Position numbers and translations under genes: made by a program. DNA of 64,000 nucleotides from Lingula anatina (Eukaryota; Animalia; Brachiopoda): assembly GCA_051362555.1 (NCBI GenBank), contig CM120644.1, positions 13,104,567 to 13,168,566 on the forward strand. Direction: 5' to 3'. Position 1 is the first letter of the stretch; the number at the start of each line of letters is the position of its first letter. Shown here one piece after another: positions 246 to 43,691 of the stretch. The notes under the pieces are model-generated. The model did not search any database. It had not been told where the DNA came from and saw nothing but the letters and a program-made list of their open reading frames with translations.

Positions 246-2848
246 CTTGGTTTCTTGAAGAATTTATGATATTTCTTTGTATCTGGCGCGGGGAAAATTC
301 TTTCAAAGTCACCTCTCCGATGGTATTCGCCCACAGTTTCAACTAGCATCCTGATATCGTCTGGGGTCAATTTGTCCAGTATACTTTGCTGGGCTACCTG
401 CAAGAGTATCATTTAATGAATTTCTCCAGACCTTTAAACAACGGACTGATGGGTTGAATATTTTCCGTGCTGCATACAAAATTTTCATATTCATATTTCT
501 TCACTATATGCTTTTTCGTCAGTGGATTACTACTGTGGTCATGACATCTTCCTGGTGAGGACTTCTTTCATTAAATTGTTAAAATGAACAGAAAGAATTT
601 GTCACCGAGCTCTTGAACTTTAATCCAAAAGAAAATTCGCCCTGAAGCTAAAGTAGATGAGACAGAATATAATTAAATGCCTGAAGTTGAGGCGCTTTTA
701 CAATTTTGAACAAGGACTCTTTCAGACAAGCAAAGATGAAGAAGGTTAGAAATTACCTCGTCGGTGATGCCAGTGTATTTCGCATGTTTTGTCTTTTCTT
801 CGTCTGTGAGCGGCTGTGTCCAAAGGTTTCTATTCATTACAAGGTGTTCTGGAACCGCGTCTTCTTCAGTGCTAAAACAAACAATGACTTAATTAATGCA
901 CGGAAAGCGAAAAACGAATGATAAATAGATTTTACCCTTTTTGCCTATAGCACAATATCATAGTGTCTAAAAGATATCACAGTGTCTAAAAGAGTGATCA
1001 TGTAATTTTAATAATTTAAGTGACAGGCACAAACAGATATGCTCTATTTCAATGATCGCCAATATTTTTCTTTTGGATCTTTAAGGCAGTTTTGGTTTGA
1101 TGATGTTATTTTGCTTCGCTGTCATTCTGTTGCAATTTTAAACATAAGCAACGTTCATTGTCAATGTTAAAATCTAGTACGGTTTTATTTGTTCTGTACA
1201 CTGATCACATCTTTCATAATAATAATAATAATAATAATAATAATTCAAAAATACTTCCAATCCAGCATTGGCATTCGCCCAGCCTTCAAATCACTATACT
1301 ACAATAACCTTTTATTCTTTTCATGTATCAGCGTTTCATTCTCTGTATTATTTATAGCACTAGGTCACCTGTGTTTCAGTTTTGGTAGCATCTCTGCAGC
1401 GGGAATCTGGACCCCAGCCAGGTTGAGCATAGACGCCAGCATGGGCTGCGTCACCCTTTTCAGAATATTCCGCGGAAACCTGAGGAAAGACTTTTTCTTA
1501 TCAAAATATTAAAAACCCTAATTAAAGTCAATAAAGACATTTCTGTTATGTTATGACTATTGTTAGAAAATTAACTGTTATAGTAACCTTGCATTTCCCC
1601 CTATACATGTAGCTAGCGCCGCCCCTTTGTATGAAGAAAAGATATGAGACTCTACAAAGCGTAACGCAAGCTCAAGCCTGTATGTTGCTAGGACGTCGCT
1701 TCTTGTCTGGAACTGTTCAAAATAGATATATGTAACATTTAAATGAGTTTTTTTTTTTTTTTTACCTTGGTGATACGTTTACTTCCATAAGCCATGCCTT
1801 CAAGTCTTCATCAAGGAGAATGTCAAATCCAAATAACTCATGTACACTGTATCGGTTCTTTATGAATGCACGAGTGCTTTTTCGCATTTTGGCTTCACCG
1901 CTTGAATTGGGAAGGAAGAAAGAAATGAATGCATCTATAACGCAAATTTATATTGGATAAAAAAAGGAAAGAGGACTGCTCACACACACACACACACGCA
2001 CCCTAAAAAAACATTAATTGACCCAAAATAAATCGTAAACCAATTTAATAAAATTTGGCAAAAATTGACAATTAATTTATTAACTTTTCTTGGGTGAGCA
2101 TGACGTTATTAGTTTGATAACGTAAAAAATATGTTTTCCTTTATAAACTTTAGAGTGGTACAAAATATCACAGAGTGTACTCTCTGCCCTACAGACAAAC
2201 AGTGTAAATTCTTTCAAAACAGATGTACTTAGAATGTGTATCATATATTCAAGCGCACAAACCTGTCTGGCAGCAGAGTTCAGGTTAGCTGTCCTCACGG
2301 CTCTTATCTCACTTTTTTTTTTTTTTAGAATAAGATTAAAGTGTACTTACGTTAAAATAGTTTTGATAACCACATCTTTTATACTGTCCCAAATAGGTTG
2401 GTGTTCAACACCATATTTCTCTTTTAAATAGCCCCATAGCCAGGTAAAGGACCTGAGGAAGAAAATGGCGTGGGATATATAATAGAAAATCATTGATAAA
2501 TCAGCGTAAATGACTTAAATATACATTTATATATTAGAAAATGTGAAGAAGATGGTTTAATGAGAAGTGTAGTATCAAATAATACGTACAGTACAATAAT
2601 ACGTACATGTATAATAATACGTACAATCATAGTTTTTCTAAAGACGAATATTAATCGTGAATTGCCGCGCAGGAGACACTTCTCTTTAATAATTCCATTG
2701 CCAGTGGCGGGCTGAAGTTGCTGACGCCTAATACGAAAGTGTGATCAACATTGCCATATACGTGTACATACAGTGTGTACAGACACAGTGCATGAGCATT
2801 TGAACCTTTCCCATACCTAGATCGATCTAGCAGGATGGACCCAATGCT

Positions 2849-2897
<49 letters not shown>

Positions 2898-3490
2898 AAA
2901 ATTGCTTTCAGCTTAAGCGGCTCTAATGGCTGGCACGCCTACTGAGGCTGTGAGGTGGTAATTAATCTCGTTAAGCAGCTTCAGTGGGCGTGCCAAACAT
3001 CTACATGTTGGCCGCTTAAGCTTAAAGCAATTTAGCAAGAAACTCCTCGGAGATGGGTCGATCCTGCTAGATCGATCCAGGTATGGGAATTGGGTCTTCC
3101 ATACCGTCTATTTCCGCGTTCCATATTTTCATCGACGAAGTAGCCCGAGTCTTCTGGGACCACGTCGCGGTTTGTTAAATGTATCGCTCTGTTGTGTAGG
3201 TCGTCCATTGTGTATCTAGTAAGTGAAAACCAAATAAATAAGAATTAATCTGGCATTTCCATATAAATGACACAGGAAATTTTGATTTGATTCACAGATT
3301 GCACTGTCTAATGAAACGATGGGAAAAGTTAACAAAAGCGTATTAAGTTCAACAGCAACGTTTCTAAAATTATCATATTTTTGTTACTGTTTCATAAAAC
3401 AAAAAATAATAATAATACTTCGTCCAGTTTCCTTACCAAAGAATTTAAAAAGCATGTATGCATTTGAAGATTCCAACACACACACACACA

Positions 3491-3531
<41 letters not shown>

Positions 3532-3771
3532 AAGTAAGATGTACTCACTTTTTAGCGGATATTCGAACACTTCCCTCATTTAACAAATATATCCGCAGCG
3601 GATCAATACTGGTGACATGAACATACAGCCTTAAGTCCATCTTAAAGCCATCGCAAAGTATTGGATTAGGGATATACCTAGAAGAAGATACCTAACCGTA
3701 AATAACTAACACTAAATATGCTATTCGACCTTTATGACATCAATCCTATGGGCGAATTATTATTATTATTA

Positions 3772-3806
<35 letters not shown>

Positions 3807-6800
3807 TTGATGAAAAGACCAGAAGGTTTTCCAGTTGTGGTCACGCGTTTAGCTCGACTTTTTCCGCTTCAACGCAACAGGATGTTAACCAAAACTGTAC
3901 ATGTATAATAATCCAACGATTAATAAGATAACTGCAAGTAAATAACCATGCATTCAAGTTACTCTCTGACCCCAGGGTCCGCTAATAATCTGGTACAAAA
4001 TCATTGCACCGGGCCTTTATTTTAATTTTGTATGCTATTTTAGAGGCCCCTGATATCAGACATAAGGTTCAAATAAATATAAGTGACCTATAAAACATTA
4101 ATTTTTGATTTTACAAAATTGTGTGTCATATTAAAAATGTTTTGATTTTTTTGAATATATATGTTACCTTTGTACAACGACATATTCGTTTTCGGGAATC
4201 TGTTTCCAGTCGTTTACAACTTCAATCCCATTTCCTCCAAATGTGCATGACTGTCCAAAAAGATAATTGACATACATGAATATCAATATATTTTATGTAT
4301 CATCTACAAAAGTAATCATCCAACATATAATCCAATACTAAAACAACAGCATTGTACTTCACCGAACGCAGGTCGAGTGTGCATGTTTGGCTGAGTGGGT
4401 ATGTGTGTGCACGCACGCGCCTGCGCACCCGCACCGCTGGTTCAGGGGTTCATACAGCATGTGAAATGACGTAATTGCTGATTTTTCGAGTTTGATTTTT
4501 AACACGTGCTTGATTTAACGTGTGTTTGAGCTATAAATGTTCCAGCACTTGCTCTTCTGTTCGCTCTCAATATATGTTCACATATGTGACGCGAGGGATA
4601 TTGAAAGTGAAAGGCATGAGCGTAACATAGCTCAATTGCTGCGTTAATGAAAATCAATTATATTGACAATAATTTATATTATTCATTTTAACAACATACC
4701 GGTTTCAATATCCATGCACCTTTTTCCGTGCTGTCCCACGCCCTTTTCAATGATATCCTATCAAAGGGTAAAATAAACGTTCTAGGAAAGAACCCATATT
4801 CTTCACTACCGTATTTGATCTTAAAATGCAGAAGATTCCCGGCGAGTTTATCTTTACAACCCAAGATCCAACTGTCTGGAAAGTGATTAAACTGAAATAG
4901 AAACAGACATTCTTTTAAAAAACTATTATTATGATTCACATCACAATATTTGATATTGCAGCAAGAGGCCGATTCTGAGAGGCGAATGGCACAAAATGTC
5001 AAAAATAAATAAAGAAAGAAATACAACTTCCGTAATTTTTTAGACAATTGTAATTTGAAGTGACCTTGAACGTGAAGTCCCGGGCCCTTCAGGATGTTGG
5101 GTAATACGGGCCTCCCACAAACCAAACATATAGAATTTAAACCATTATTGAATTGAAATGATTTATCTATATAGTCCTTTTATTCTATGATCTGATAATC
5201 TTGAAACACGCTTGATTCCCTTGGTATGGTAAAAAAATAGTTGGATTAAATTCTTATGGTTCAATTCCGAAGGTATTTATTATTATTATTATTATGATAC
5301 TAAATGAAATCGTCATTACATGCACCTTCTAACCTTTTGATACGGACGGACCATTTGATAGTACTTTGTCTCGTTGATTTGATAAGGAAGACTGAAATAG
5401 AATGTGTACTCCCCTGCATCTGAAAACGAATTATTAGAGCATTAAAGTTAAACTGTGTTCATATAATTGCGGATTCAGGACTTGAGTAGATGGCAAATGC
5501 GTCACGCAGCCCCTCCCCTTGATTAGGCTTTGGACACCCCCCCCCCCCCCCTTCATTTTATCTTCTTTCCAAAAAACAGTATAATGGGAAAAACGAGATA
5601 AAAAAAGTAGTTTGCCAATTCCTGTGCTCTTTAAGGCAAACATTCCTTGGACAATCCCTCCCCCCGCCCTCCGCACAATTATGGACCCACCTTTGTCTTT
5701 CTTTGTATTCAATGTGTAATAAGAAAAAGGGAACATTTGTTCTTAGCGTTTAACAGAGATTAATGCCAAAGTCGATCTTGTAAATTTGAAAATGTACAGT
5801 CTTTTGTATGCCTGTGTATTGTCATGTTGTTAAACAGGCTCCAAGGCAAAATACTGAAAGCAGCAGTATAACATATGAACACTGCCAGCTGAAATATACA
5901 TGGACCCCCCTTTGCTTCCAAGAGGAATAGACATTAATCATCATTAAGGCCAACAATTAATAAAAAACATTGGACGAGAGTGAAGAACATGTCCTTAAAC
6001 GTCAGATTCCTTTCTTTGTAAGGCTGTTATCATAATTATGGCAACTATCATCAACTAACCTGTACTATGTGTAAAACCAGACCGTGAAATATAACCTGCT
6101 ATGACGGAAGACGGATCACCGTAATACTTTAGCCGGCTCCGTATGGCTGGTGGTAATTCCTCCACTGTAATATGAGAAAATGACTAAATAAGAAATTAAT
6201 TTTATGATGGATTGGAAAAACATTTCCGGTTGAGATGCTGCACAATAAAAGGAAATACATTTATTAACGAAAAATCGCCAGCATTTCTCAATCATGTAGA
6301 AACTGTTATTTTTTCTCTACTCGCCTTGGTGATATCTGTACATTATACACTGTAAACTATAATTATTATGAATTACATGAATATAAGGATATTATTACTG
6401 CTACAAGAACATTTACTACTAGATTCGTGGCACTAAATTATAAAAGGTTGCTAGGATTTTTTTAAAAATTAAAAAATAATATGAAATGTGTTCTAATTTA
6501 AGCAAATTTCCTCAGTAACCCCCCCCACCCCACCCCAATGTACGTAGGCCCTACCTTGCTGGTCTGGCCTGACAAAGTTTATCGTTGGTGGAACATTAGA
6601 AAATAAACTAAGGGTCAACGCGGGCTGAGCGATGTTCTTTTTTTCGTGCTTTTTGGCGATTTCTTCAGTTAAAGGCGACACCGGTTTCCCGGAGGGACAG
6701 TCGTTGGTTCCAGACGATGACTCCTGGCCCTCACCTGCCTTGGTCGCACACTGACCATCTGTGGTTACCGCAGGGTCACCTTTTCGAAAAAAAAGAAGAA

Positions 6801-7070
6801 AAAACTTTTTAAATGGCATTGCTTAATGCTGAGGTGCGAATCAACGCACAGCAGATGTAACCACCGTGCGGTACATTTATGCGACAAGAGTGTGAAGAAT
6901 GGTAGAGATCAAACTGAGAAAATGTACGTTACACATGTTCATGTCAATGAACGTATTTAGCCCATCTGACTTACTTTGCCTCTAAGTACATGTAGACAGT
7001 ATAGTACCCTACACTACAGTAAAGTACTGCTTTTCTGACTATGTAATTATATCAACCATCCAATGACAGG

Positions 7071-7135
<65 letters not shown>

Positions 7136-7260
7136 GGCCAGTGATACATATAGCTTTAAAATATGTGAATGTATTACTTTGGTAAAATGTGCAATATTAC
7201 TATAAATAAAATAGGGCAAACAGATATGAATGTGAAAAAACGTACCTGAAACATGTTCAC
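246..7260 (-). CDS. TTLL4: TTLL4-like tubulin-tyrosine-ligase-family ATP-grasp ligase, paralog A (multi-exon; 5' start unresolved, last exon lies left of the window)
   Basis: Hand-spliced exons, all GT-AG with consistent phase: (7246-7260 putative microexon), 6555-6779, 6060-6164, 5334-5419, 4700-4891, 4168-4250, 3549-3677, 3105-3215, 2351-2452, 1766-1900, 1369-1479, 757-871, 246-397. Motifs: [12 protein letters not shown] (TTLL4-type), [88 protein letters not shown]. The symbol means TTLL4-like, not proven orthology. Confidence 0.88.
2808..3089. mobile_element. MITE-like palindromic element in TTLL-A intron, with internal poly-T
   Basis: The left arm TTCCCATACCTAGATCGATCTAGCAGGAT..GCAAAATTGCTTTCAGCTTAAGCGGC pairs with the right arm GCCGCTTAAGCTTAAAGCAATTTAGCAA..ATCCTGCTAGATCGATCCAGGTATGGGAA. 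A ~44-nt T run interrupts the left arm. It ends ~15 nt from the donor at 3104. Confidence 0.7.
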
Positions 7261-8829
7261 CTGAAGCTAAAATCACTAATACAAAAATGCGAAAAAACTT
7301 GTCAAAAAAGCCTTTGCACATTTTCATTAAATCCTTATTTCGTTCGATGACGTTGCAGAAAAAATAAGTTTGAATACAATTAACCTTTTACACGCGCTTA
7401 TGCAGCCAATGTGCGTAAATGATAGCGTCCTAAGAGAAGTCGTCCACCGTTAAAGTAGTGACTTTGCAGTTTTATCAATTGAAGAAAAGCGACGGAGTCT
7501 GATACATGTGTGACCGCCTTCTTCAAACCCATGCATATGTAATTGGCACACCATCTAGGTACAGACTGGTTCAAGTCCGCAATTATTGAAATTATCTATG
7601 CATCCATGCATGCCCACCACATGTACATTTGTCGGGTATCGGAAGTCCCCATCTCCATAATCGGCTGGTTTAGATTGTAGATGGCGTAATTGTCGGATCT
7701 CTGAAATTACCTGTGGAATATGCTCAATAAGCAAAGGTCTAGCCTGATTAGATTTCTGCTACATAAAGGTGTTTGAACTCGACTGATAAGAAGAAAAACA
7801 CCTTATCTACAGTAGATGCAGCGGAACTGAATACGTGCAAGGGCAAACTGATATGAAAACACATATAACATGAAAACACAAGTGCCGGTCCCGTGACAAC
7901 GATAATCTTCTCGGTTAAGCCACAAGAAATCGGTTTGTGTACATTTATTATTTACCATATGTAAGCGGCGCATCTGAAACATGCGCGCGTACATGATCGC
8001 CCAGGCTCTAGGTTAAGTATTTTTCCATCTCTCCGCACACTCATATACTAAGACCCTCTTGTAAAACGTTTTCCTCGATAAGAGTAAAGACAGGCATTTG
8101 AGGACATTCCCAATGTTTCACACGTTTAATTTCACAATTTGCGTCTCAGCCGATATATTTTGATGTCGTTAGTCTCTTCTTCTTCAAATACGATATCACA
8201 AGTGCACATTATTTGTAAGAGAAGTGAATAAACTATCAGTATGCCTAATTGGTATCTCGACTGTGAGATAAGGCTGCAGACGACGTAGACCAGTAATCAA
8301 GAACTCCCCCATTATAGAAAGGCTCCAGATAAGAATCTTTCAGTGCTCTCATATTCAAGACTGCTATACCCACTGTCCGCCTTACTCGCATTGTACCAGT
8401 TACTCGCATTGTACCAGTGCACAGTAAGCTGCATGTTTTAGACCGTTGAGTTTTATTTCCAAGAACATGACAAACGCACGGTTATTAGCGGTCGTTATAT
8501 TTTTGAAAGTTTTTGGATCAAGTGCGGACATTACAGGTAAGTTGCCAAAAATATTGTGCTGATTTATTTATTGGAAATATCCCTGGACATATTATTATGT
8601 TCAACGATCATTATTTGTGCACAAGAAATATATTTGTGAATATACTGACTGAACCATCTACCACCTACAGTAGAGGGCAATACGTAGGTTGACTCGTAAA
8701 ATGTCACGGAGAATTTTTTTTTCAAAATAAATGCCAAGCTTATTTTAATTTTGGCAATATTGCTTCTTGTATATATAAAACCTAATAAATGGTATTCGTC
8801 CAGCAAACGATGTCCACAGTATCGTATCC
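7261..8829. promoter_or_regulatory. Divergent intergenic region / shared promoter of the two TTLL4-like paralogs
   Basis: The genes point away from each other. Candidate upstream-exon donors are at 7709-7710 (minus, CAG|GTAATT) and 8537 (plus, CAG|GTAAGT). TSSs are not located. Confidence 0.45.
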
Positions 8830-10848
8830 ATGGGGACGGATCCCACGGGATTGGCTTCCTCAACCGAGACGCGTACGAGCTCTGCAGCGGATGCGTGTTC
8901 AGAAAAACGACGTAAAGGGCCTGTGGCTACAGATACAAAGCCAGATACACCTGCAATGACAGATCAACACCACGACTGTGATAGCATAAATAAAGCAAAG
9001 GAAGTATTGAAAGATGATGTCATACAGCGTAAAGATGACGTCATACAGCGTGCGCTAACTCCAAGCTTGTTTTCTAACGTCCCGCCAACCATTCATTTTG
9101 TGAGGCAAGAGGAACAAGGTAACTTTTTTAAATTCATTTTATCTCATGCATTGTGATGCTGCAGAATATACTTCAATTCCATTGCATATACTTCATTTCG
9201 TATTTTTGTATTCGACATCTGTTACTTTGTTATTTATTTATTTATTTATTTATTTATTTTATTTATTTATTTATTTTTTTTTTTTTTTTGCCTAGATTCA
9301 TTATTTCTCATTTCTCCCTATCTTTTTCAATTTTTTGGTTCTCTTACATTCTTTTTACCCTCCTTCCTTCTTTCCTTTTTTTCAGTTTCAATCTTACAGT
9401 TTATTTATTTCAGTCAACTGTAATCACGCAGTGACGTTAATTTCCCTATATTTTAGTGGAGGAACTACCGACTGCTGCAAAGAAACGTTTAAGATACTAT
9501 CACAGTATAAATAAAGTCATTGAAGAGTTCGTAACCAGAGTTGGTTTCACACCAACAAAAGGTATGTTGAGTCTTTGTACACTGATATATAAGCGAAATT
9601 AGACCGTGACCGTAGAACTGATTCCCGATTTCAAAATGGCGGACATAACCTGTTTTCCAGCCCCAAAAAAGGAGGGGGCAAATTTAACCAAAGGTATAAA
9701 AATTGTACAAAAAGTTTGCTCCCTCTTTTGTCGATGACTGAGATTCACGAATGTATTAAAAGTGATTGAAGAAATGTTCGATAATTGTATTTGTCCAATA
9801 TACTGGTACATTGTATAAATACCCAATTTTTCGTAAACATGTTTATTCTTTTAAAAAATTTACCTTCAGCCAAAATATATGACAGTATACCATTTGGTAT
9901 CACATCATAAGTGACATATTAAATTAGCAATAAAAACTACTAGTAGTATTCGGTGCCTGAAATTTTATTTCAAATTTTTTCTTGTCCTTTACAGAACCCC
10001 AGATACACAGCTTCTACTTTGGCCAACCTTACCAGCTACACCGGACAGATTCCTATCAGACGGTTAAGCCGCACCAAAAGGTATGGATAAAGTTGTAATT
10101 GAAGCTTTAGCTTCAAATTCTGGCTTAAAAATTGTCAATATTAATAACAGCAATTTCAGGATGTGCTGAATACAACCAAAAAAAATTAAATAATTAGAAA
10201 AAACAGCATGTGAACGAATTGAATCAAAGCTTGTATTTGCATGTAATTTAAACTAAATAAGTTGTTATTATTTATTTTACTTGTTTGTTTGTTATTTGTT
10301 TCTTTGTAGTCTATTGTCCCTTTTTGCAAGCGTACTTGAAACAGAGACCCTATTTTCAGGATATATAACACTAAAAAGTGTCAACGATATTTTCAGTTCA
10401 ATCATTTCCCAGACTGCTGGGCACTTGGTTGCAAACATCATCTCGCAGACAATCTACAAAGACATAAACTTAGACATGGCGAAGATGAATTTGACTTCGC
10501 TCCCCAAACTTTTGTCTTACCGCGGGACAAGGATGTTTTCCTGCAAACTTTGGATGAAAGCGACGAAGATCAAGCGTGGATAATTAAACCGGTAATAATG
10601 CTGGTAGTGTTAATCAAAATAAAAACAAGAACGTCATAAAACAAGACATTCTCTTGGATTGCTAAGGGGGTCAGTAGTGTAAAAAAATCCATTTATCATT
10701 ATAAGAGTGAACTGAATAAGCCATTCAACAATATGCAGTAAATAAATTATATTTAAAATATAAATAAATAAATAAATAAATAAATATTCAAGTGAAATGT
10801 CTTTAATGGATGCCGAGGCCTTGTTTAAGTTATTATTATTATTATTAC

Positions 10849-10891
<43 letters not shown>

Positions 10892-11318
10892 GGCAAGTGG
10901 TAACACACTTTTCCATTCTCCAGGCTTGCAGTCATGGTGGGCAGGGTATTGAAGTGATAACCAAAGGGCAGCGGGTGATCGTAAAACAAGAATCCGTCGT
11001 ACAAAGGTAATAATGGAATGTATGGGACAGAACCGCATGGGTGGAACGACCGAATATGAGAATGGTTGACTGCCGTTTTTGAGACTGGAAATGGGGAGGA
11101 CGTTTGGGAATGATTTACTTAAAGGAGTGCAAAAGATGATGTCTTATTATGGGCGTGTGCACATTACATGTATGACAGCATGTTTATGACGTCATATTTC
11201 GCCGAATAGACTTATGAAAATAAGGAGGGATCTGAAACTATTATGGCAATAATATTTTTTTATCTACTGACTCTAGTTATTTAGCAGGACACAAATTTAT
11301 TTTAATTTTTTGTATTAC

Positions 11319-11355
<37 letters not shown>

Positions 11356-12144
11356 TATAATAATAATAATAATATTATTATTTGATTTATTTGAATTCTA
11401 AAATTCAGTATAATGTACAGTTGGAATTACATAAAAAGAACCAAATACGTAAAAAGTTTCCATGTTTGATCATAAAGATGCTGTTATTTTTTTCTTTCTC
11501 TTAATTGTATATCTCGTCACCACCAGGTATATACCTAACCCCATATTGATAGACGGACATAAGATGGATATCCGAGTTTACGTCCTCGTGGGGAGTATAG
11601 ATCCTCTGAGGATCTACATGTATGAGGAAGGGCAAGTACGGATAGCTCATGAAAGGTTAGTACAACCGCCCTCTCGCTCGGTGTCGTACTAGTACATGTA
11701 CCACAATAGGGGAGCATTTCAGTGAAGTCGGTAACTCACACGTTTTGTGTAATATTTGCATAACTTTTCAGTTTGTTTTAAATACCTGTTGATTTTGTTC
11801 TCCATTGGAGAGTAAAACACCGTGAAACGGCGAAAAATATAATAAAGGGACAAGTCACTGTCAGGCAAATTTTACATGAAATGTATGCGTTACAGACGCG
11901 ACTGAAATTTTTAGATATATTTTTTGTTGAATAACCCCTGTATGTGTGCTTTGTAAGATCATCGGCCAGTTTGGTTGTGGGCTCAGAAGGTCAGCGATAA
12001 GCTGACCGATAGTGATGAGAGGTCAGATGGATCACAGCAAAGGTGATTATCGGTGCTTTAACACATCTCACATTTTTAATTTTTTTCTGCCTTGTTTTTC
12101 CTGGTAGATGGTACTCTGAGAGATTTGGTCCTCTGAATGCTTCT

Positions 12145-12198
<54 letters not shown>

Positions 12199-14287
12199 TG
12201 ACACTGTTATGTGCATGCACAGTAATAATCAGGATAGCATAAACATGCATATATTTTCTATTCTATTTTATTCTTCTATTCTATTGTTGTGGTGAAACCA
12301 ATTAAGTGAAACCAATTAAGAGAATTCAAGCTAAATCAAGAGCAAAAATGTATGTTTATTCACATCTTTCTTTTGATTCAGATATTCCACGGATAACTTC
12401 AACAAATTGACGACGCATCTAACCAACTTTGACGTGACCCTTGCGAACATTAACAACGACGTCAAAAACGCCGCCAAACACAAACGGTGAAATACCACTT
12501 TAAGCCTTGTTACATTGGTATTCCCAAAGAAAGAAATGATTGAAATTTTAATAGAAGATAGATTTAGGATTGATTGTGTGGAACACATTTATAGCAATCG
12601 CTTCCATTGTAAATTTTTCTTATATTGCAGCATTTCTTGGTAAGCTAGTGAAACTGGATAGGATGTTTAAGCACCTCCTTCCACTGCCAAAATCATTTTG
12701 GTAAAAAATTGTGAATTTGGAAATATAGAGCATCTTCTTTGAAAAATGTGAAAAAAGTCATGGCGAGAAGGAAAGGGTCCTCGATCATCCTGCCTCCGCT
12801 TTTTTATTTATTTATTATTATTTATTTGTACTGTGCAGAATGTATGTGATATCGCAAAAACGAACAAGTGTTAATGAGTTTAAATAATGACTAATTTATA
12901 TTTATCTACAGCAAACCGCTGTCGTGGTTTTGGGAGCACAGTGGTGTCCAACGACAGCCAGTGTGGGATAAAATCAAGGACATCGTTATCAAGTCAATCA
13001 TTAGGTACGAGTAAGACCTGGAACATTTATAATTAATTACGAAATTATTCAATTAAAAAAATTAGATTGTATACTTAACCCTCGTAGGTCATCATTATTT
13101 CTTTTACTTTTCATCCATTTTATGATATTTTATAGTGGGCACAATCTTAAGCTTTGACACGTGACATCCTCATTTTCTAGATGGTATTTCTTTAAGAATA
13201 TCTATCACATTATTTTATAGCTAGCCTATTCACAGACATGATCATCACTTAACATAACTGATCCCCAATATATTGAAATCTATTTCTACTTAAACTTTAT
13301 TTTAATTTCAATTTTGTCATTAACCTCACGAACAATTCTCCAAGCAATCCGTGCTTTTGCCACGGACACGGAAATAAACATTGTGATTGTTTTGTCATTG
13401 TTGAAGGTACACTCCATGAAATTAAGTCGCCAAAATGGATTTTCCCGGGAAAATAAGCGAATTTGTCGTACTTACAAAACATTATCTAAACCTCCCTGGA
13501 CTTACATATTCGACCTTTAATTGAATTTATAAAGTTTTAATTTAAGTTTAAAATGACTGGTCGGTCATTATAAAAGAGACCATATTCCTATAATCCCCAA
13601 TAGAAATATCTACATCATGTACGCTCCAGAAAAAAATATTCTGATCAACTAGTCTATCACTTCCCGCATATATCGCCCCGTGCCTATGCCCCCCTTCCCT
13701 GTTGCTCTCCTTTACAATAATATGAGTATCAATAGTGCTATCACAATTATTACTATCATATAATCATAATTAATTCATTTAGCTACTATTAATTATGATA
13801 ACGCAGGCGAGCACATAATGCTGTGGCGACGTGCTGCCTGCTTGGAATTCATTTACTTTGTATATCTTTACTTTATATATATATTCCAGGAGGAAAATCA
13901 TTTAAAGGTGTATGTAAGGTTTTATAAGAAGCTAGGGATGATAATAATAAGCATTTTGAGGATGTTCATATCCACAGAGTGTACCTTTAATTATAAAAAA
14001 AAGTGTATATTTTGCATTCAGCGGTGAAGCAAAGATACGAGACGCAACCCTATCGAACATGGCAAGCAGATACAGCAACTATGAATATCTGGGATTTGAC
14101 ATTTTTCTTGACGATGATCTAAAACCCTGGATTATGGAAATCAATACGTCGCCCAGGTTAGTAGACCGTTGGTTTCATATAGCTACTCGATGGGCTGCAC
14201 TCTTCCTTTTTATTTTTTTAGTTTTGAAGACGTGTTTGTTTAAAGTTCGTTTTGTTTTAAAACCAAAAAGACCGAGCCTAGGCAGAC

Positions 14288-14319
<32 letters not shown>

Positions 14320-16596
14320 CTCAGGGTTCCGTTTATAAAATCTTAACAAAATTAACGTAAGAGACCATAATTTTGTTTTACTTTGTTCCAAGATAAATCA
14401 ACAGATTTGATATATGAAATATTTTGTCTCTGTACGATCTAATTCAGCTTTTCTCTTTTCATTTTTATTTCATTTCATTCTATTCTTTTTCACACTGCAT
14501 CATAATAAGACTTGCCATTACGCAGTGCATTGTAAATGTCTTCAGAACGAAAATAGAATAGTTTTATTGTATATTAGGTTTTATTTTTCTTTTAGAATGA
14601 CTTATAGAACATTAAAAGACATGAAGAGCCGCATGTACAGAGATTTGTTGAACCTGGTTGGCGTTCAGATTCCAGACCAAGATTTAGCGAATCCGAAGGA
14701 AAAGAGGTAACGGTATGCTTTACATTAAACTTGACCATAGGACCGGTGCGTTAGTCCGCTAGGAACCGTAGTCTGTTCCCAATTACTTTGTAAGGGTGAC
14801 ATTCGCCCCATATAGTAAAGCCAATACTCCAACTAGCCCTAACCTTTAGTTATCATATGGGGCCCGGACTTTCATTACTAGGCCTAAAACTGACAGTGTG
14901 CCTTAATTTAGAGTCGTAATTTTTTTTCATTTCAATTCAGAATAAATATGTTTAGTCCACCAGAATAACACCACTTTTACCTTATTATCATAAAAGTATG
15001 CGCACTTTTTCGCTCATTTAAAAAAAAAACAATATTGTTAATTAATCTTTTTTCAATTTAATTTTAATTAAGATTAAAATTGGCTTTCATAGACCCAAAC
15101 TTTGTCCGAATTTTTTCAAATCTCCTCGGGCATTTCTAGATGTCATTTGATATTAACAGAACTAAAAAAAAGATCATGTGCTGGGACACATATCCGTACA
15201 CAGTTGCCGGCGTGCATGTTTGTATGTGAGCTCATATGAATGTGCACTACAGAATTGTCGATAACATGCCATTCAGCTGCAGTATTACAATACGGCAGAA
15301 ATATTTATTTTGCCCTCCTCCCCCCCCCCCCCCAAAAAAAAAAAAAAGAAATAAAATAATAAAAATAATAATAATACATTCAAAAATAATTCTGTTGTTT
15401 ACCATTCATCTTGATATTTTTTCCAGCAAAGACACGTTTCCAAAACACCTTGTTATGGACCACCGGCTGTGGAATTACTCTCTAACTAACGAAGAAAGGG
15501 AAAAACATGATACCTACACAGCCATTAAAGACGAGGTAGCTATATTTGAAATTAAAATCATTAGTTTTAGGTTATCCCTTTTCCTAAAAATAAAGCCTTG
15601 CGACTTTTATTTCATACTAGAGATTATTTAAAATGTCATTGATTTTGGCATTAAGCAGCAAATATAGTGCGCATTTCGAAGGGCAGGCTCCATTAACTGG
15701 TTTCTCAAACAAAAATGCCGACTAAAATAAGCCAAAAATCCTTAAGATTCTAACAATTAAGAAAACTTAAGACACGCCAGTGAAAAGAAAAACGAAACAA
15801 AACAAACTGTCCTTTGACTTTCACAAGGTTGCAATCACATCCCTGTGTCACTTGCCGTTGATCACTCTTGTTTGTTTTAACAAATTCATCTCCCTGCGAG
15901 AGAGAGGTCGTCTAATTCATTTCATTCACTTCTTATCTGCAGCAGATTGTTTTAGACCTTCCTCTTTTTTCCTTGTCAAATAACGTCCATCAAATTTTGC
16001 GTGCAAAGTAAAATAAAGATTAAAACTGAAACTCTGTGTAGATGATGTATTTGAGAGAATTAAAGCACTGTAGTAAATTCATCTATATGAAGATGTAACT
16101 GTTCATCTACAGAAACTCCAACAAGCCATGCTGGACGACCTGAATCCCGATGATATCCGGATCTTGATCGAAACTATGGATGAAAACAACCGCAGGGGCG
16201 GGTTTGAAAGAATATTCCCAACGCCTGACACAAAGAGATATCACAAATTATTTGAGGGCCCAAGGTATGTCTTTATTCTAGCAATAGGATTCTATTGGAT
16301 TGTTCTGTATGTACGTGTATGTAGGCGTATGTATTGTATGTACGTGCACAGCATGGGATGTTGGTAATGTACGCACACAGTGCCACATTTGCAGAAACCT
16401 GGACGTTTTATCTTAATATACGTGACCTCAGAAGATCTCTCCACCTTGTAAAAATTCTGTTAAATCTGTTCTACTTTTTTTCAGATATTATAACCTCCTC
16501 CTCCATCACTGGATTCAACGTTATCAGCACAATGAAGAAGAAGGGATCAAAGTTCTGGAGTCGTACTGTAGACAGTCAAAACATCTCCAACCTTAG
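8830..16596 (+). CDS. TTLL4: TTLL4-like tubulin-tyrosine-ligase-family ATP-grasp ligase, paralog B (~567 aa, 13 coding exons)
   Basis: Exons 8830-9118, 9457-9561, 9995-10080, 10397-10591, 10924-11006, 11527-11655, 12382-12486, 12912-13004, 14022-14156, 14596-14706, 15427-15535, 16113-16264, 16485-16596 (1704 nt, open frame, TAG at 16594-16596; AATAAA ~16813). Motifs: [101 protein letters not shown]. Intron positions match paralog A. Confidence 0.9.
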
Positions 16597-18069: not shown

Positions 18070-19236
18070 CTAGTCACCACTAAAAGCCCGGTTGTCTATA
18101 GTAACAGATTGGATCCTCATCCCTACGTTCACATTCCTCTCTCCATTGGTAGCTGGCCTAGGATTAGAATTCCTCCAACACGTGGACCGAACCCTACAAA
18201 AACATACCATTTCTTTAAGGTGCTCACGAAATTTGCTCCCAAACAGACCATAAATGAAGAAGTTGACGGCCGAGTTGAGCATGACCACGTCGCTCAGTAA
18301 GGGGAAGGTATAGGGGTTGGCCTCTGTGGGTTCCGTGAATGTATGCATGAACTGGGCTACCGACGTGAAGAACTGCGTCAACGACATCAGAGCGACGATG
18401 ATGACCACGATTTTCGTCAGCTCATTCTGATTCAGGTTTCTCACTGCCGACGCCCTGCCGTTCCGCCTCGCGTTAGAGAATGCAGAAGAGCGTTCCCTCA
18501 AACGTCTCAGGATTTTAACATTCAAGATGACCACCACCGACACCGGCACAAACAACAAAAATATCACGTACAGGGCGAAACGGTACAGAATCTGGTACAA
18601 TCTCCAAGATGGCGACTGCTTCATTGTTGGAACCATAAAGCAATAGACCGTCGTGGAAGCATTGGGGTCCCCGCACAAACGATGTCCTTGGAAATCTGTG
18701 TCTAAGAACTTTGGCAGATTGAAGATGGTGCCGAGAACAACAAGCGCGAACACGGGAAGGTACCATTTTGAAGGGGCTTGTTGCGGGCCGGCATCCAGGT
18801 GGTCCGAGCAGACGACATTGTGGCGTTCCAGTGTCACAAACACGGCAAGATAAATGACAATCGTACCCGGAATGAAATTCAAACCCCAGACGTACTTGTA
18901 GTACCCTTGTATTGAATGGAAGTAGCTTTCGAACCAGCCTGTGTAGGGGTAGAGTGACGGGATGTTATACATAATGAACTGGCACAACAGCATGGCGTTA
19001 TCGTTCACAGCGAGGCAGATGAGGAGAAAAGAAGTTCCAGATTGAACCTCCATCCTCGCGAATACCAGGATTGAAGTCGTATTGAAAATGATACCGACGA
19101 GGCAGATGATGCTTCCAATGACGCCCCCGACAAGAAACGTGTAAAAGTTCAGCGACTCTGGGTAAATGTTCAGGGTCCTGTAGGGATCTGTAGAAAAATT
19201 GCCCATTTCGCTCGTAGCGGTGACATTCCCTTCCAT
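18070..19236 (-). CDS. Intronless rhodopsin-family (class A) GPCR, FMRFamide/sex-peptide-receptor-like, 388 aa
   Basis: Single ORF with N-terminal N-glycosylation sequons (NVT, NFS) and seven hydrophobic segments. Motifs: TM1 GIIFN, TM2 LAVND, TM3 VTLERHNVVC (DRY equivalent), TM4 FNLPKF, TM5 FVP..LNVKI, TM7 LNSAVNFFIY, helix 8 KFR, then Cys (palmitoylation-like). Confidence 0.92.
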   Translation of the reverse strand: MEGNVTATSEMGNFSTDPYRTLNIYPESLNFYTFLVGGVIGSIICLVGIIFNTTSILVFARMEVQSGTSFLLICLAVNDNAMLLCQFIMYNIPSLYPYTGWFESYFHSIQGYYKYVWGLNFIPGTIVIYLAVFVTLERHNVVCSDHLDAGPQQAPSKWYLPVFALVVLGTIFNLPKFLDTDFQGHRLCGDPNASTTVYCFMVPTMKQSPSWRLYQILYRFALYVIFLLFVPVSVVVILNVKILRRLRERSSAFSNARRNGRASAVRNLNQNELTKIVVIIVALMSLTQFFTSVAQFMHTFTEPTEANPYTFPLLSDVVMLNSAVNFFIYGLFGSKFREHLKEMVCFCRVRSTCWRNSNPRPATNGERNVNVGMRIQSVTIDNRAFSGD

Positions 19237-19939
19237 GGCAGCAAGTTTCCGCGACGTGTTCTGTCTAAACAGGTGTTTCTTGATGTGAGACTCGCGTTAT
19301 ATGTCGATCGTCTTCTTATATCAATCCTGTCTAGCATTAATTTCTTTCCTGCGAATATTGATGCTGTTGTGGATTATCCTGTCTTACACTGTAATGTCCT
19401 TTTTCCGGATAGGTATTAAAAATGGATTTTTGTTATGTCGAAACATATATGTCTTCTTACTATTTTCTATTTCGCCCTCGCTGGCTGGGGTTCACAGTCA
19501 GAACTCTCTCTCTCTCGGATCATATGTACATGAACCCGGTACACATCTACGCTGACGTTTGCATCCTATGTGTACCATGCACGTGGGAATAAAGGCAAGC
19601 ATGAAAAATAAGAATGGGAGGCGACAGATTTTTTTTTTATAAACTGTAAGAAAGAAGGCGCACAGCAGAAAAATAACTTATGTTACACATGCTATTTACG
19701 AAGACAACCAAACAAAACCGATCCGCAGAATTTGGAGAGTTAAAGTGATTAAGTAAAACGAACAAAAATCTCTTTTTTTGTCAAATAATATGTACATATT
19801 ATGATGACAAATATCTAACATAAACTACTAGTACACCAGACTCCATTCAGATATCACTTAAATAACAACATGACGCTTTTACGCAGTATATACCTGTATG
19901 TCTCTTTATATGCCGTATTGACTCGATCTTTCCAATGGG

Positions 19940-22311: not shown

Positions 22312-25300
22312 TCAGCTGGCAGCTTGTTTTTTCTTTTTTATCATGTCACTGATGTATTTGACTCTGGCAACACAGTCATCCTGAAAAGTAAAGAAAATTA
22401 AATGAATCTGTGATAGTGTGTGATTGAATTCACTATATAGATTTTTGAAAATGACTAAATATTATGGAACTAAATGTTACTGTTACAGCAGCAATTCACT
22501 CAAAGAACATGATAAAGCACTATTTTTCATAACCATCATTTTCTTACTAGAATAAAATTTAAAAACAACAACAACAACATCAAAATGACTCTGAGACAAT
22601 AATAAATAAATAAATAAATAAATAAGCACATAACTATGTACCATTCAAAGGATCATAAACTTGTACAAGCATTGGAAAAAAAAGCAACTGAAATCTCAAA
22701 ATGCCATACATACCTTATCTTTATCTGGCACATGCTCGGCTATTTTCTCCCATCTCTCTGCTGTTCCTCTAGGATACTGCGCCAGTGCCCACTCCAACAC
22801 TTTCTGCTGTGTCTGGCTCCAAAACTGAACTGATTCCTTTTGGCTCCCATCACCCGCTTGGGTGGGAACATTTTGATCAGATTTTAAATTTTCCTTCTCG
22901 GTTTCATTTTTAGTTTTTTGACTGGGTTCAACTTCAGAAATAAGCAACGTCCTTTCTGAAGATTTTGTTTGTTTATTTCTGCGTCGCACTTTGTTTGTTT
23001 CAGCTGACACACCGTCGTCTGCTTCCTGCCGTCTGCTAATGGTTGTGTCACTGATGACTGCATGCTTTCTGCTCCCTATGACACTGCTGTCATCTGGTGG
23101 GCAAAAATGAAAGAATCTATCAGTTTTATTTCCAATCAAATCAATAACAATTACAGCAAACTTAATGCATCATATTAGCAGTGATTTTTTTTACCCTAGC
23201 ATGAAAAGCTATATCAAGCAAACATTTCTTTGTCCTAGTTTAGAAAATAATTAGATTAATCAAGTTTGACTATGTATTTTCTTTCTTTCAAAAATGGATT
23301 TTAAAATATAGTAAACAAAAATGCCAAAAGTCAATTAAAATATTTTCTTTTAAATCAACCAAAAAAAATTATGCCAAAATAGAAATTACAGATTTATGAA
23401 AACATAAAGAAATATAAAATGAAACCTCACCTACTAAGGCAGACCCTGCCAAAGACTGAGTATTAAGCTGTTTAGCCTTGCTGATTACATCAGGAGTGGA
23501 ACGTCCAACAAACTCGGCTATTTTCTCCCACCTCTCCTGTGTCCCGCTGGGGAACTTGGACACAGCTTTGGCCAGAATGGACAGGTCATCTGCTGTCCAC
23601 TCACCAGTCTATGGAGAGAGAAATAATAAAAATAACTGTCATTATAGAGAAAATTTAATGAATCTTATGTGCCAAAATGGCTTAAATATATGTAATACAA
23701 ACATAGATATGTAAGAATGTGACAGTAGGCTACAACACAAAACACTAAGCTACAACTGTGCATAATAACCATATAATTACAAATTATCTCATTTAACTTT
23801 CCTTTTAGAAGTAAGACTTATTTGGTAAATTAAAAAATAATGGTGATACAACTGACTCGATGTAGTTATATTGCGAGACTGAAAATCCCGAAATCAGGCA
23901 TAATCTTGAAAACTTTCACCCATGGAGAAGGTCCATAGGCTGAGAAAAATGTTTGGATTTGTACTGTAGGGGCAGTACTTGAAGACCTATACAATGTTTG
24001 ATACTCCTCTAGGTTGAAGAAAAAATAACTACAGATACTTCTGATTGACTGGAAGAAAGGGATATGGTAACATTTCATAAAGATCCCCCTCAAGTTACAT
24101 CAGATATTGAAGTCACGTAGGTTTTTTTTTAAATCCTAGCACTGTGGTCTGTGAGGTAGGTTTTTTATTGTTTCGTCTGTAATGATGGTGAAATGTAAAT
24201 TGTTTTTTAAAAAGCCTAAACATGCTCCATGCGTTCTATCTATGAAACGTGGCATTCCAACCCTTCATTAAAGGACCTTGATCTCATAACATTACATCAC
24301 AACAAAAAGTGAGTAATGCAATCAGAGCTCTTTCAAATTGATGAAGCCACAAAATTTTACAGCTGCTAGGTTGAAAAACACAATCATTTAGTCTATACAA
24401 AAAAATGAAAAAAAAAAAAAAATAAAAATAAAATACCCAGCCTAATACAGTACTTAGAATACCTTTAAATTAGAATTCTTCTTCTCTTCTGTTTTGTCTT
24501 CTCCAGTGCTATTCACACCATATACAACAGGAACAGTGTCAGTCTCGGGAGCCGTGTACTCTGGCAGTTCTATCTTTTGGCGCTTCTTTGGTTTTCTTGT
24601 TGGTTCTACATAAATATAAAGGCAGTTTTTAAAATTCAATCATGTTGAATGCAGTAAGTCAAGCATCGTTATATAGGAAATTAGACCTTTTGGTACTTTT
24701 CACAAGACCTAACCCAATCTTTATTTCATTTTCTATTTCTTTATTGATTTATTTGTTCAAGGTTAAAACACAATTACTTGTTCCACCAATCCTTAATTAA
24801 CTTATTTATTCCTTCTTTCTTTCTTTTTTTCTTTCAGTCTATTATCTTTCTTTTTGCCTGGTAGGGGAAAGCGTAATTATTTGATCTTTTTTAACTGTGA
24901 ATTTCACTGATACTGTTTAGTCATAATATCTTAAAATTAGAAAATTCCTTTTGAGTGGTAGCAACAAAATTAAAAATCAGGCTACTCTTTAGTGCTATCC
25001 TATGCAGCATAAGCACCACAATTGCCATATAGAAATCTAATTTTTGTGATTATAAAATAACCTATCTGAAAGTTTGATAGTTTTTGCCCATTGAAAAATG
25101 AAAGTAACTACCGTACCCGCAGCTTTCATTTCCTCCTCCTCTTCTCTCTCTTTCTCCTTTGCCCTCTCCATGGCCTGGCGCTCTTCCCACTTCTCCTTGA
25201 TAAGACAAACCAGCTGGGGACTGGCAATAACTGTTTTGACACACACCACTGGAAACCTAAACATATGCAAAGCATTCTGCAGCATTATCTCAACTGTCAC

Positions 25301-26394
25301 CACATGGCAGTCAATGAAAAGCAGAAGCAGGGCCTGTTAAAAGGGCTGTGGCCAGCAGTTTAAAAGGGAGGGTTCTGTTTCTGGATAGGGAGGTGGATCA
25401 TTCACCCCTTTACTTGATGCAACTTGAGAAATTGCATAAAACCCGAGTAGATCTTATTTTGAATCGAACTGGATCATTTCAGCATAAAGGGTGGTTTTTT
25501 CAGTTGATAAAAACTGATAAAAGTCACAATGAATGAGACCTTGGTGTTGTTGTTGGTGGGTTATAACATGTCATGAATTTCCAATCTCATCAAGTATCAA
25601 ATATATTAATCATTATTTCCATTATTATTATTATCGATTTATCAGTTCAAGACATATACTATACTATTATAATATGCATTAGTAATACCTTAATATAAAT
25701 AAATCCTGCAGTTTGGGTCTGGGTATAGACTCCAGCTCCTCTTGTATCATTTGATCCACAGCATCAAGCTCACTTTCAGCTTTTAATCTGGCCTTTTTGC
25801 CTCTCTTTTCTTTCTTGAATCTTGATGTCAAAACTTCTTCCTTGAATAGTCATTTCAATATACAATTCATTAAATGTAGCAGAGATTGAGCATCATAGTT
25901 TCATATACAATTAAAATAAATTGACAGAAAGCAAAAGTCAATATACACAAGTTGCGACATTCTTGTCATACAACAATGATGTCATCTGATTAATAATACG
26001 TTACTTTTACTTTACTCTGTTTGATAAAAATATCATTTAGTAGTCATTGTTACATAGATTTACGATGACTATTCCCAGATATAAGAAGGGCATTTAGACA
26101 GTATAAATGAAAATGTTTTTTTTTTTAAATTTTCGTCTGCTTTTTTTTTTTTCTGCATGCCAATCCAAACACTTCTCCTATCAAACCTTATTGGACAGAA
26201 TATAACTTCTCATACTAACCACTTCAAATTTCTTCTCCAGGTACACAGCCCAGGAGACTAAGAACTGACCGATGGTGAAAATAACCAGAAGAAGGACAGT
26301 CATTTCAGCCAGTCCCATCTTACGGACTTTCCTGTAGTAATAAACTGGCATCCTCCAATCTGGTAGTCCATTAACCAGAACTTCATCATACCTA

Positions 26395-26445
<51 letters not shown>

Positions 26446-28087
26446 AACTGATTGGTGTCATTTTTCATGAGCTTAACCTGATTGTGGTAAATTTATACAA
26501 ATCATCAAAAAAAACTTTCTAAGCTGATATTTCTCTACTAGTTTTTATTTAAAATCTGTATGTACTTAATGTTTCGACTTACTTCTTTCTTTTCTCCTCA
26601 TCTTTAAGGATTTCGTAAACAGAAACCAGCTGGAATTTGAAAATGAATAAATAAATTAATAAATGAGGAACCCATAGTATGATAAAAATATCAGTGACTC
26701 GTTTTCCAACACTTCAAAAGTTCAAGAACCCATGCTTGGTTACAACTACTTCACATTTCCAAACTTTTTACTCATTCCTTTACATATTTCAAGATTTACC
26801 TTTTATGATTTAATTAGTCACAGAAATAAAGTTATAGCATGAAGCATCTCTGAATTAACATTAATTATTGAAATTATTTCTAGAAAATTGTTTTTGAATA
26901 TTACAAACTTATTTTGTTAAATTATAATAATAAACGCCATAACATAACATAAAGAAAGTATAACCATAACAATTACATTTTTTAGGCAAGTTCAAGTAAA
27001 ATAAAATCCCACTGCAATCCACACTAAATGTATATAGCTGAAATAAGGAGGGAGAGAAGGGGAGCTGAAAACGTTTATATTTTACCATGAAATCATTGTG
27101 CACCTAGATCATTTTTTAACCCAAAAATACCTTTTTTACTGGCAAAAAGGGAAGATGGAATCCTGTTGACTATAGGCCTGATGTGCCAGTCACTATGAAA
27201 ACCACACACTACTTTAAATTACCTGTCTAAACTTGATCTCAGCATCATCTTCTTTATTCCTATCAGGATGGAGAGTAAGGGATAACCTTCTGTAAGCTCT
27301 TCTTATGTCACCTGCTGTAGCAGTCTAAAAAATCAGTGAATGAAAGATAAAAAAAAATGTATTCATTGTGTGGAAAAAGTGTTTACATAGATCTGTATAA
27401 TGTGCAAAAAAAAAAGCACAGTCTGTCACAAAATCACAGATTTTACACCCTCTGGACCGTTTGCTTCCTTACGTTAGTTAGCACAGCTGGTACAAACGTA
27501 CGGTATATTAGAAATTGTAAACATGAATTTCATGCTACTCAGCCTTTTCACAACTGATCACACTCAACAATTTAACACAATGATACCAAGGAAATGATAT
27601 TTTGTATAAACCCTTCAACGCCCGTTGTAATTTTGACAGCAAATATTAAATAATAATTGTGTTTAACAAACTACCAGTGATACTGTATGTTTAAGCAAAC
27701 TACTAGTATATTTGTTTTCGAAATCTATAGAAGCAGAAAACATTCGAAAATTGTAAGATCCTCTCAATTAAAAACGTGATAATATAATAATGTTGATATT
27801 CTAATCATACATGCACTGGCCAGAACGTCAAATACATCTTTAACTAATTTAGTTATAGGAATTTAGCGTTTTACATGTACTTTTTGTCTTTTAGTTTGAC
27901 ACATCTAACACATTAGATCATACTGTACCTGGTCTACACCAAGGAGTTCATAGAAATTTTCATTCACTTCTTCAACTGCGTCAAAAACCTCTAAATCTTC
28001 ATTGTCCCAAGCAATAACATATGACAAACAGAGTAAAACCAAGAAAATAACACAGATGTAGCGTTTGACGTGGGTTCTGCCGGCCAT
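22312..28087 (-). CDS. DNAJC1: DnaJ homolog subfamily C member 1 (ERdj1/MTJ1): signal peptide, J-domain, TM, two SANT/Myb domains; ~513 aa, 10 exons
   Basis: Exons 27929-28087, 27223-27324, 26583-26629, 26220-26391, 25689-25840, 25117-25256, 24463-24605, 23431-23608, 22714-23093, 22312-22380 (1542 nt, in frame). Signal peptide + [21 protein letters not shown]; J-domain [17 protein letters not shown]; [24 protein letters not shown]; TM; SANT repeats [19 protein letters not shown] and [28 protein letters not shown]. Confidence 0.95.
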
Positions 28088-31225: not shown

Positions 31226-31259
<34 letters not shown>

Positions 31260-40200: not shown

Positions 40201-40861
40201 TGCAAGATCCACTGGAACTCTGAGTACCACTCAGCTAGCTGGCATGACATCCCAGCAGTACTATCTGGACTTGTTACAGCAGCAGAGGTCGCTGCAGGCA
40301 CACTCACTGGTGAGTCTGATTGCGTTTATTGTTCCTTGATGGATTGTGCTTTGTTTTTCTTGGGTTGGCTTTTCCATTCAGTGGGGATCAACTGAGGTGG
40401 CCTAAAGGGCAGGGATTCAGCACTGTGTGGCATCATACCATATGGGAGGAAAAAATGTGCTGAATCCATATGAACCTAATGGGTGAACCTTTTTTACTGG
40501 GAATGTTGAAATAGAAAGAAATGCAAGATTGATACAAATCATGGTGAGTTTGTACTGTTGTGCAGTAGCCGTTTTTTTTTTTTTTTTTTAATTTCACTCT
40601 CCTTTAAACCCTGGGAAACGTTGATTTGGAATTAAGTATGAAGACTGAATCGTGGGTTTTCGTGGGTGATCTCCATTGCAAGACAATGTTCTCATCTTGA
40701 CATCTGAGGCAAAATGGTCACTTGCTTCAGTTGTGTTAGTTGTGATTGACAGAACTGAACTGATTTTATCTACTTTATTATTTATTTATAATAAATTATT
40801 ATTTTTTCTTTGTTGCCATTTGTGATACCAGTGTTACAAGCACCCTTTTGTATTTATTTGT

Positions 40862-42591: not shown

Positions 42592-43691
42592 TGATTATAT
42601 TAGATGCGAAACGATGGTTTCAGAAAGGGAATTTCTTGGCCTCGCTGACGTTGAATCTGTGGGCGTGGTTTCAAGAACGAGATTTTCGTTTCTCCTTTTC
42701 TCCAACATTAGCTCGTGGTGGAGCAGTTATAATATAATTATACATTACTGATGTTGATAGTCACTTGTGTTATTTAGTTATCAACATTATACAGAATGTG
42801 GCAAACGATACATTTATTCAGTGTTAATAGTGGCATGTGAATTGTTAAGTAAATCAATAATATTATTCTTATTATTGTTATTGTTGATGATGATGACGTA
42901 AAGTAAGAAGTAAAATCTTCAATCAACTAACTTTTTGCCATTTTTGTGTCAAGGCATTATGATGAAAGCAGTTATGTATATTTATTATTTGGATTTTTGT
43001 AATGGGTACAGGCCGATAGTAAACAATGTATGGTATTTTTAATGGGACGGCAGTTGGTGAACGTTAATGGCCTTTTATTTACAGAAAAATTTTTGTGTGT
43101 GTCTATTCAGTTTAATTAGTTTGCCACAGCCTCCCTTTTTTAATGAATGGTGGTTTTTCGCATAAAGATCTATTTCATGAAATGTGTAGAATTGATCCTA
43201 AACTAAGCCACAAAAAGACTTCCGTGTACGAGGAGGACGTTGCACTGGTGAATTCTCTAACAATTTTAGAAGAGCGGAACACGATAGCTTTTTAATAATG
43301 CACTAAAATGGTTGGATTATTGGTAGGTGTATATATGAATTGCCAGTCGTTGTATTTAGTTGCTGTATATTTTAATGTTAGATTTTAAAATATGTGTACA
43401 TAATTATTACATGGATTCCACGTGGTTTTGTATTCAGGCGCTCACTCTGGGGCACGGTAATGTAGTACAAGTGTTTATTATTGAATAATTTGTTAATTAT
43501 TGTATAATTGTATTCTAGTTATTCCTGAATTTATATTAAAGCATGCTTTTCAGAGTATCCGTCGTTTTTGTTTCCTCTTATTATTGTGCCACGTCTTGGA
43601 TGTGCCTGATGTTCTCAGTTGCACCTTCGACTGGCTTTTTTCTCCGACTTTGCCTGATATAATTTTTTTCTTCGTACCTTTCACATAATTC

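Follow-up and report, generated by a model that had tools for sequence, protein, structure and literature searches.

The window analyzed here, a stretch of 64,000 nucleotides of the Lingula anatina genome (contig CM120644.1, positions 13,104,567 to 13,168,566), holds two TTLL4-like genes, A and B, which lie head to head with 1140 nt from ATG to ATG (Table 1). These genes belong to a real, maintained and lineage-expanded variant of the TTLL4 family, whose products we regard as candidate amino-acid ligases of the secretory pathway. Once spliced, gene B encodes 599 aa without internal stop, identical to RefSeq model P0001, and when a single exon served as query, a 599-aa protein with 100% identity came up, labelled 'tubulin polyglutamylase TTLL4 [Lingula anatina]'. 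Gene A gives an open frame of 542 aa, an exact prefix of model P0278, its last exon lying outside the window, past its start. All introns of the two genes (25/25) are GT-AG, and their phases agree between A and B.

The region between the two start codons is likely a shared bidirectional promoter with 5' untranslated exons. RNA was examined in four of nine runs bearing the same label (X1, X4, X7, X9), which may derive from diverged populations. In run X1, spliced joints of the expected strand were seen for 6 of the 13 coding introns of gene B, the acceptor of exon 5 at 10397 was borne out, and reads of both strands were found in bin 7441-7997; gene A showed weak depth on its own, opposite strand and no listed joint. 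Runs X4, X7 and X9 gave no exon joints at A or B, a result that, without a housekeeping control, is not readable as tissue specificity. Also, in all four runs, reads from diverged copies stack on a palindromic insertion resembling a miniature inverted-repeat transposable element (MITE) in an intron of gene A.

Protein searches returned 11 Lingula models of this family, which correspond to four pairs on the same scaffold (thus at least 8 genes) and three copies that are probably allelic (identity 91-98%, or membership in the same 90% cluster). Two further scaffolds with family members look like allelic duplicates. The analyses below cover 10 models, P0371, a near copy of P0007, being left out; most pairs are 41-65% identical. 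The Lingula models form one clade, both in a quick tree of 48 rows (10 Lingula rows, SH-like approximate likelihood ratio test 99) and in a careful tree of 26 rows (6 Lingula rows, support 100/99). In the careful tree, where branches are long, this clade falls outside canonical animal TTLL4 (96/93), and the approximately unbiased test against grouping it with 7 lophotrochozoan TTLL4 rows gave p 0.018, with long-branch pull possible. No member from another species was found among the best 150 of 12,520 representatives or the best 120 of 275, in which other brachiopods are perhaps poorly sampled. Among 22 long internal deletions in the control proteins (database TTLL4 proteins), 5 begin and end no more than 3 residues away from Lingula introns where 0.6 were expected, which indicates that intron positions are common to the Lingula family and animal TTLL4. 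We therefore reject an origin by retrocopy; the simplest origin of the clade is a fast-evolving TTLL4 duplicate. The family was not described in the literature that our searches covered, most subscription papers being outside their reach.

The catalytic core is intact. Pfam recognized the TTL domain (PF03133) in B at E 3.9e-71 and in A at E 2.4e-66, and its scan of both proteins returned no families beyond ATP-grasp ones. Residues are numbered after TTLL6, by hand count on the 8t42 alignment, and their roles are those given in the available part of the TTLL6 structure preprint (10.1101/2020.06.07.139295). Among the members covering each site, K125 (8/8), K174 (8/8), R219 (9/9), N264 (10/10), and D346, E359 and N361 (9/9 each) are kept, as is R241 in 8/9, with Lys in the other. 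The AlphaFold model of B has a confidence score (pLDDT) of 84.7 with residues 16-94 disordered, and its top Foldseek match is TTLL6 (E 6e-30). For A against B, the ratio of nonsynonymous to synonymous change (dN/dS) comes to about 0.08 (459 codons; 95% 0.04-0.23), a rough value because synonymous sites are saturated (proportion of synonymous differences, pS, 0.749). Together, the fixed catalytic residues, the model with its fold match and the low dN/dS point to A and B as maintained enzymes, which would work like a TTL-family ATP-grasp ligase. An earlier sequence-only reading had seen here an intact ATP-grasp core, in open and properly spliced frames kept by selection and not decaying, and our data agree with it on each of these points.

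The main feature missed by that reading is the first coding exon, which in both A and B encodes a signal-peptide-like segment running from basic to hydrophobic to small residues. The six genes with complete N-termini all start in this manner, one of them weakly, with best hydropathy values of 3.96, 3.70, 3.61, 3.35, 2.78 and 2.25, and none of 328 controls reached 2.8. No second transmembrane segment was found beyond the N-terminal hydrophobic one. A, P0007, P0008 and P0266 carry no Met after the signal segment until the conserved core is reached, and an internal start would therefore not yield a full cytosolic form of these members.

Three other changes accompany this exon. First, only three positions fixed in the family differ from the control consensus, and two of them are new cysteines (8/8 and 9/9 members; 1/323 controls each, both together in 0/340). 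The core as a whole has about 4 cysteines, where the median of the controls is 8. One adjoins K125 and the other lies in the phosphate loop; since the regions around both sites contact ATP phosphates in TTLL6 (10.1101/2020.06.07.139295, available part), a disulfide is plausible. Second, the canonical HLTNYS motif places an N-glycosylation sequon on the catalytic Asn (N264), mutation of which abolishes TTLL6 activity (same preprint). This sequon is present in 316/322 controls and in 0/10 members, which keep the Asn and carry D, A, E, L or N at the +2 position; a second conserved sequon is found in 198/324 controls vs 0/8 members covering it. Third, the net charge of the core lies between -5 and +6 in the 6 near-complete members (A -1, B +6), against a median of +28 and a 5th percentile of +11 in 324 controls. 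By these sequence proxies, A and B lack the cationic surface of the cytosolic TTLL4. The worm proteins TTLL-9 and TTLL-15 are also without a cationic microtubule-binding region (PMC5051658), so that charge loss alone does not exclude tubulin as a substrate.

In TTLL6, K283 and K377 bind the donor's gamma-carboxylate, R241 and the HLTN loop hold its alpha-carboxylate, and Y265 and S266 contact it via backbone amides only; in TTL and the glycylases TTLL3/8/10 a change of donor goes with a change at K283/K377, as may hold in the Lingula family, the glycylases being likened by description (10.1101/2020.06.07.139295, available part). Controls have Lys at K283 (330/334) and K377 (333/338) and Ser at S266 (329/338). 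The family has R (7), K (1) or T (2) at the K283 site and K, T, R, H, H, H, N, M and I at the K377 site, and 0 members in the alignment carry both lysines. Gene B is basic at both sites (Arg363, or Lys362 if intron-anchored, and Lys449), which makes a neutral or basic donor unlikely for B and is compatible with glutamate. Gene A has Arg and Thr in place of the two lysines of TTLL glutamylases, and glutamate is probably not the donor for A and most paralogues. At the R/Q site (Q180), which carries the Arg of TTLL4 in 315/337 controls, 8/9 members have Gly and one Lys, and Gly fits neither the initiase nor the elongase class as judged from these alignments. This site is altered in some controls too (Cys in 14/337; Ala in a bee TTLL4-like protein); thus a changed pocket alone is not unique to the Lingula family. 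The H362 site is Val in A and Thr in B (family V 7, I 1, T 1), the TTLL4 initiase having a hydrophobic Ile.

The sequence-only reading had drawn much from this pocket. Every motif change that it quoted is present in A and B, the canonical forms with which it compared them were confirmed by the control counts given above, and changes at these very sites recur in 10 Lingula models whose catalytic residues are fixed, hence not by chance. Its view that Gly at the initiase/elongase site lies outside known classes stands. The different donor that it proposed is likely for A and several paralogues, not for B, where the basic residues are kept. We reject HLTNxD as a signature of donor choice, given the backbone-only contacts of Y265 and S266; since the sequon is gone and the Asn kept, sequon removal is the better reading. 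The available part of the TTLL6 paper names two lysines that bind the donor, and the lost Lys after HLTNYS (TTLL6 K269) is neither of them.

The reading that we favor, at a probability of roughly 0.6, is that A and B are secretory-pathway ATP-grasp amino-acid ligases, B probably adding glutamate and A something else. The signal-like exon, the charge loss, the new Cys pair and the sequon loss point away from the cytosol, and the two proteins are probably not tubulin-code writers, contrary to what had been proposed from the sequence. These TTLL4-derived enzymes would act in the lumen of the endoplasmic reticulum (ER) or Golgi, or outside the cell, on carboxyls of secreted proteins instead of tubulin. 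The first exon would send the catalytic domain to the lumen, either as a cleaved signal or as a signal anchor with a disordered stem behind it, Cys204 and Cys259 may form a disulfide near the phosphate-binding loop, and the HLTN-x-S change would protect the essential Asn from N-glycosylation. The chemistry would be unchanged, with formation of an acyl-phosphate and then attack by an amino group. B, basic at both donor sites, would add glutamate or another acidic donor, A (R/T) and those paralogues whose K377 site holds H, N, M or I may accept other donors, and Gly at the R/Q site may open the acceptor site to non-tubulin acceptors.

Several points weigh against secretory-pathway ligases. The signal call comes from a hydropathy score only (best 8 residues), and P0007 reaches only 2.25, a score met by 9/328 controls. 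Internal Met codons exist in B (Met 33 and 75) and in P0004, giving a possible cytosolic start. The signal-exon junctions of A and B are not among the listed RNA joints and bin 6884-7440 has zero reads, so that both 5' ends, including the B junction to 8804, rest on RefSeq models. The disulfide is a plausible prediction from sequence, total sequons in the family show only a modest deficit (14 vs about 20 in shuffles), 7 controls are likewise without Ser/Thr at S266, and the family counts are non-independent samples because members are kin; the saturation that blurs dN/dS belongs here too. A canonical Lingula TTLL4 was not among the best 120 of 275 nor the best 120 of 4545 matches, and some family member could therefore do the job of TTLL4. 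To our knowledge, it has yet to be established that free amino acid is supplied to the lumen. Finally, a search for 7 accessions and the family name found no member in the available shell-proteome supplement of PMC13425148, a result that speaks against its being laid down in the shell but leaves the case for an ER/Golgi enzyme unaffected.

Other explanations share part of this evidence. That the enzymes are lumenal or secreted and make protein-protein isopeptide cross-links, join amino acids to glycans or chitin-linked polymers, or make small peptides draws on the same localization data, on the glycine-rich loop and the variable K377 site (K, T, R, H, N, M, I), which suggest a wide change of substrate, and on the peptide-glycan product raised for C7orf58 (PMC2824669); we consider it doubtful, as the kept R241 and HLTN loop, which hold the donor alpha-carboxylate, fit a free amino acid or peptide. 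A cytosolic, or membrane-tethered and cytosol-facing, TTLL variant that uses glutamate or a new donor on tubulin or other proteins of the cytosol would explain the TTL fold with all catalytic residues, both basic donor residues of B, the hydrophobic residue, as in an initiase, that 8/9 members have at the H362 site, the lack of a canonical Lingula TTLL4 among the matches listed, and Met 33 and 75 of B. Against it stand the first exon with its hydrophobic product, the gained Cys pair, the missing sequon and the lost net positive charge, and it appears unlikely. Inactive, decaying or binding-only pseudoenzymes, which long branches, several partial models and the scant RNA of gene A might suggest, are very improbable, and pseudogene decay is rejected, in view of the open frames, kept splice sites, fixed catalytic residues, dN/dS well below 1 and spliced B RNA.

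Among known enzymes, TTLL4, a tubulin monoglutamylase of the initiase type, is about 40% identical to A and B over the whole core, including its N- and C-terminal extensions. It is also the closest predicted structure and has intron positions and all catalytic residues in common with the Lingula family. The latter differs in that a signal-peptide-like exon replaces the long disordered N-terminus, and in having Gly where TTLL4 has Arg (Q180 site), a gained pair of Cys, no N264 sequon, a neutral core, a variable K377 and at least 8 copies. In sequence, it thus has neither the Arg at the Q180 site nor the cytosolic cationic character of the TTLL4 tubulin initiase. The elongase TTLL6 (PDB 6VZT-6VZW) shares the fold and the nucleotide, Mg and phosphate ligands, but no member has Gln180 or His362 and most have changed donor lysines. 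TTL is a far weaker match than TTLL6 (E ~1e-19 vs 1e-46).

A precedent for a secreted TTL-like domain, and the only one found described in the literature searched, is CPED1/C7orf58, whose own function is predicted. For its TTL-like ligase domain, surface polymers were predicted as the targets and the secretory pathway as the place of action; the ATP-grasp is joined in one protein to cadherin-like and PC-esterase domains, and the versions of molluscs probably lack activity (PMC2824669). Compared by description, the Lingula proteins derive from TTLL4, stand alone, have their active sites intact and, by Pfam, show no cadherin-like/PC-esterase fusion. Also, a JGI record (P0217/P0274) holds a very divergent TTLL4-like protein with a hydrophobic, signal-like start and without the N264 sequon. 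It lacks the Cys pair, has Phe at the R241 site and falls outside the Lingula clade, and its sequence would fit a possibly separate secreted lineage, so that rerouting of TTLL4 may have happened more than once.

Table 1. Features of the two ligase genes and of the rest of the window (window positions).
Feature	Position	Strand	Remarks
Gene A	7327-246	-	13 coding exons within window; RefSeq XP_013397584 (P0278)
Gene A, coding exons 1-7	7327-7246, 6779-6555, 6164-6060, 5419-5334, 4891-4700, 4250-4168, 3677-3549	-	
Gene A, coding exons 8-13	3215-3105, 2452-2351, 1900-1766, 1479-1369, 871-757, 397-246	-	
Gene A, first coding exon	7246-7327	-	Signal-peptide-like segment, phase-1 intron at end; best 8-residue hydropathy 3.70
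MITE-like insertion	2808-3097		Intron of gene A
Region between start codons	7328-8466	.	Between the divergent ATGs of A and B
Gene B	8467-16596	+	14 coding exons; RefSeq XP_013397583 (P0001)
Gene B, coding exons 1-7	8467-8536, 8804-9118, 9457-9561, 9995-10080, 10397-10591, 10924-11006, 11527-11655	+	
Gene B, coding exons 8-14	12382-12486, 12912-13004, 14022-14156, 14596-14706, 15427-15535, 16113-16264, 16485-16596	+	
Gene B, first coding exon	8467-8536	+	Signal-peptide-like segment, phase-1 intron at end; hydropathy 3.61
B Cys204 and Lys205	10430-10435	+	New, family-invariant Cys; Lys205 = TTLL6 K125, phosphate ligand
B phosphate-binding loop	10924-10941	+	New Cys259; Gly262 at TTLL6 Q180 site
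B HLTN-x-D	12416-12433	+	Catalytic Asn343 (TTLL6 N264) kept, N-x-S sequon lost
B Lys449	14624-14626	+	TTLL6 K377, donor gamma-carboxylate; Thr in A; from alignment
G-protein-coupled receptor	18070-19296	-	Single exon, rhodopsin family, PF00001 E 4e-13; directly downstream of gene B
Exons presumably DNAJC1-like	22696-26492	-	SANT-like C-terminus; single open reading frames without Pfam match
Repeated element, ~2.5 kb	31241-33983 and 43688-46003		Two copies 12 kb apart, 93-98% identical blocks; holds a 146-nt tandem array
Exons presumably AF10/AF17 (MLLT10)-like	34734-40395	+	Like C-terminal leucine zipper; no Pfam match
Foldback-like element	52136-54402		234-nt inverted arms 99% complementary, more nested arms

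Luo et al. (2015) found no secreted acidic shell proteins in Lingula, and the family is not mentioned in the available text passages and supplement of that study (PMC4595640). An extracellular 'tubulin code', in which secretory ligases add glutamate or other amino acids to shell or matrix proteins and so give them the acidity that their sequences lack, is a long shot, and its link with that study is speculative. The family gives a candidate way in which matrix proteins could become acidic in this animal, whose shell is of apatite.

The TTLL enzymes known are writers of the cytosol or nucleus. With a catalytically intact, expanded TTLL4-derived family carrying predicted signal peptides, amino-acid ligation to secreted proteins becomes directly testable. 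The automatic label 'tubulin polyglutamylase TTLL4' probably misleads for every copy, and the donor-site variants within the family constitute natural material on what sets donor choice.

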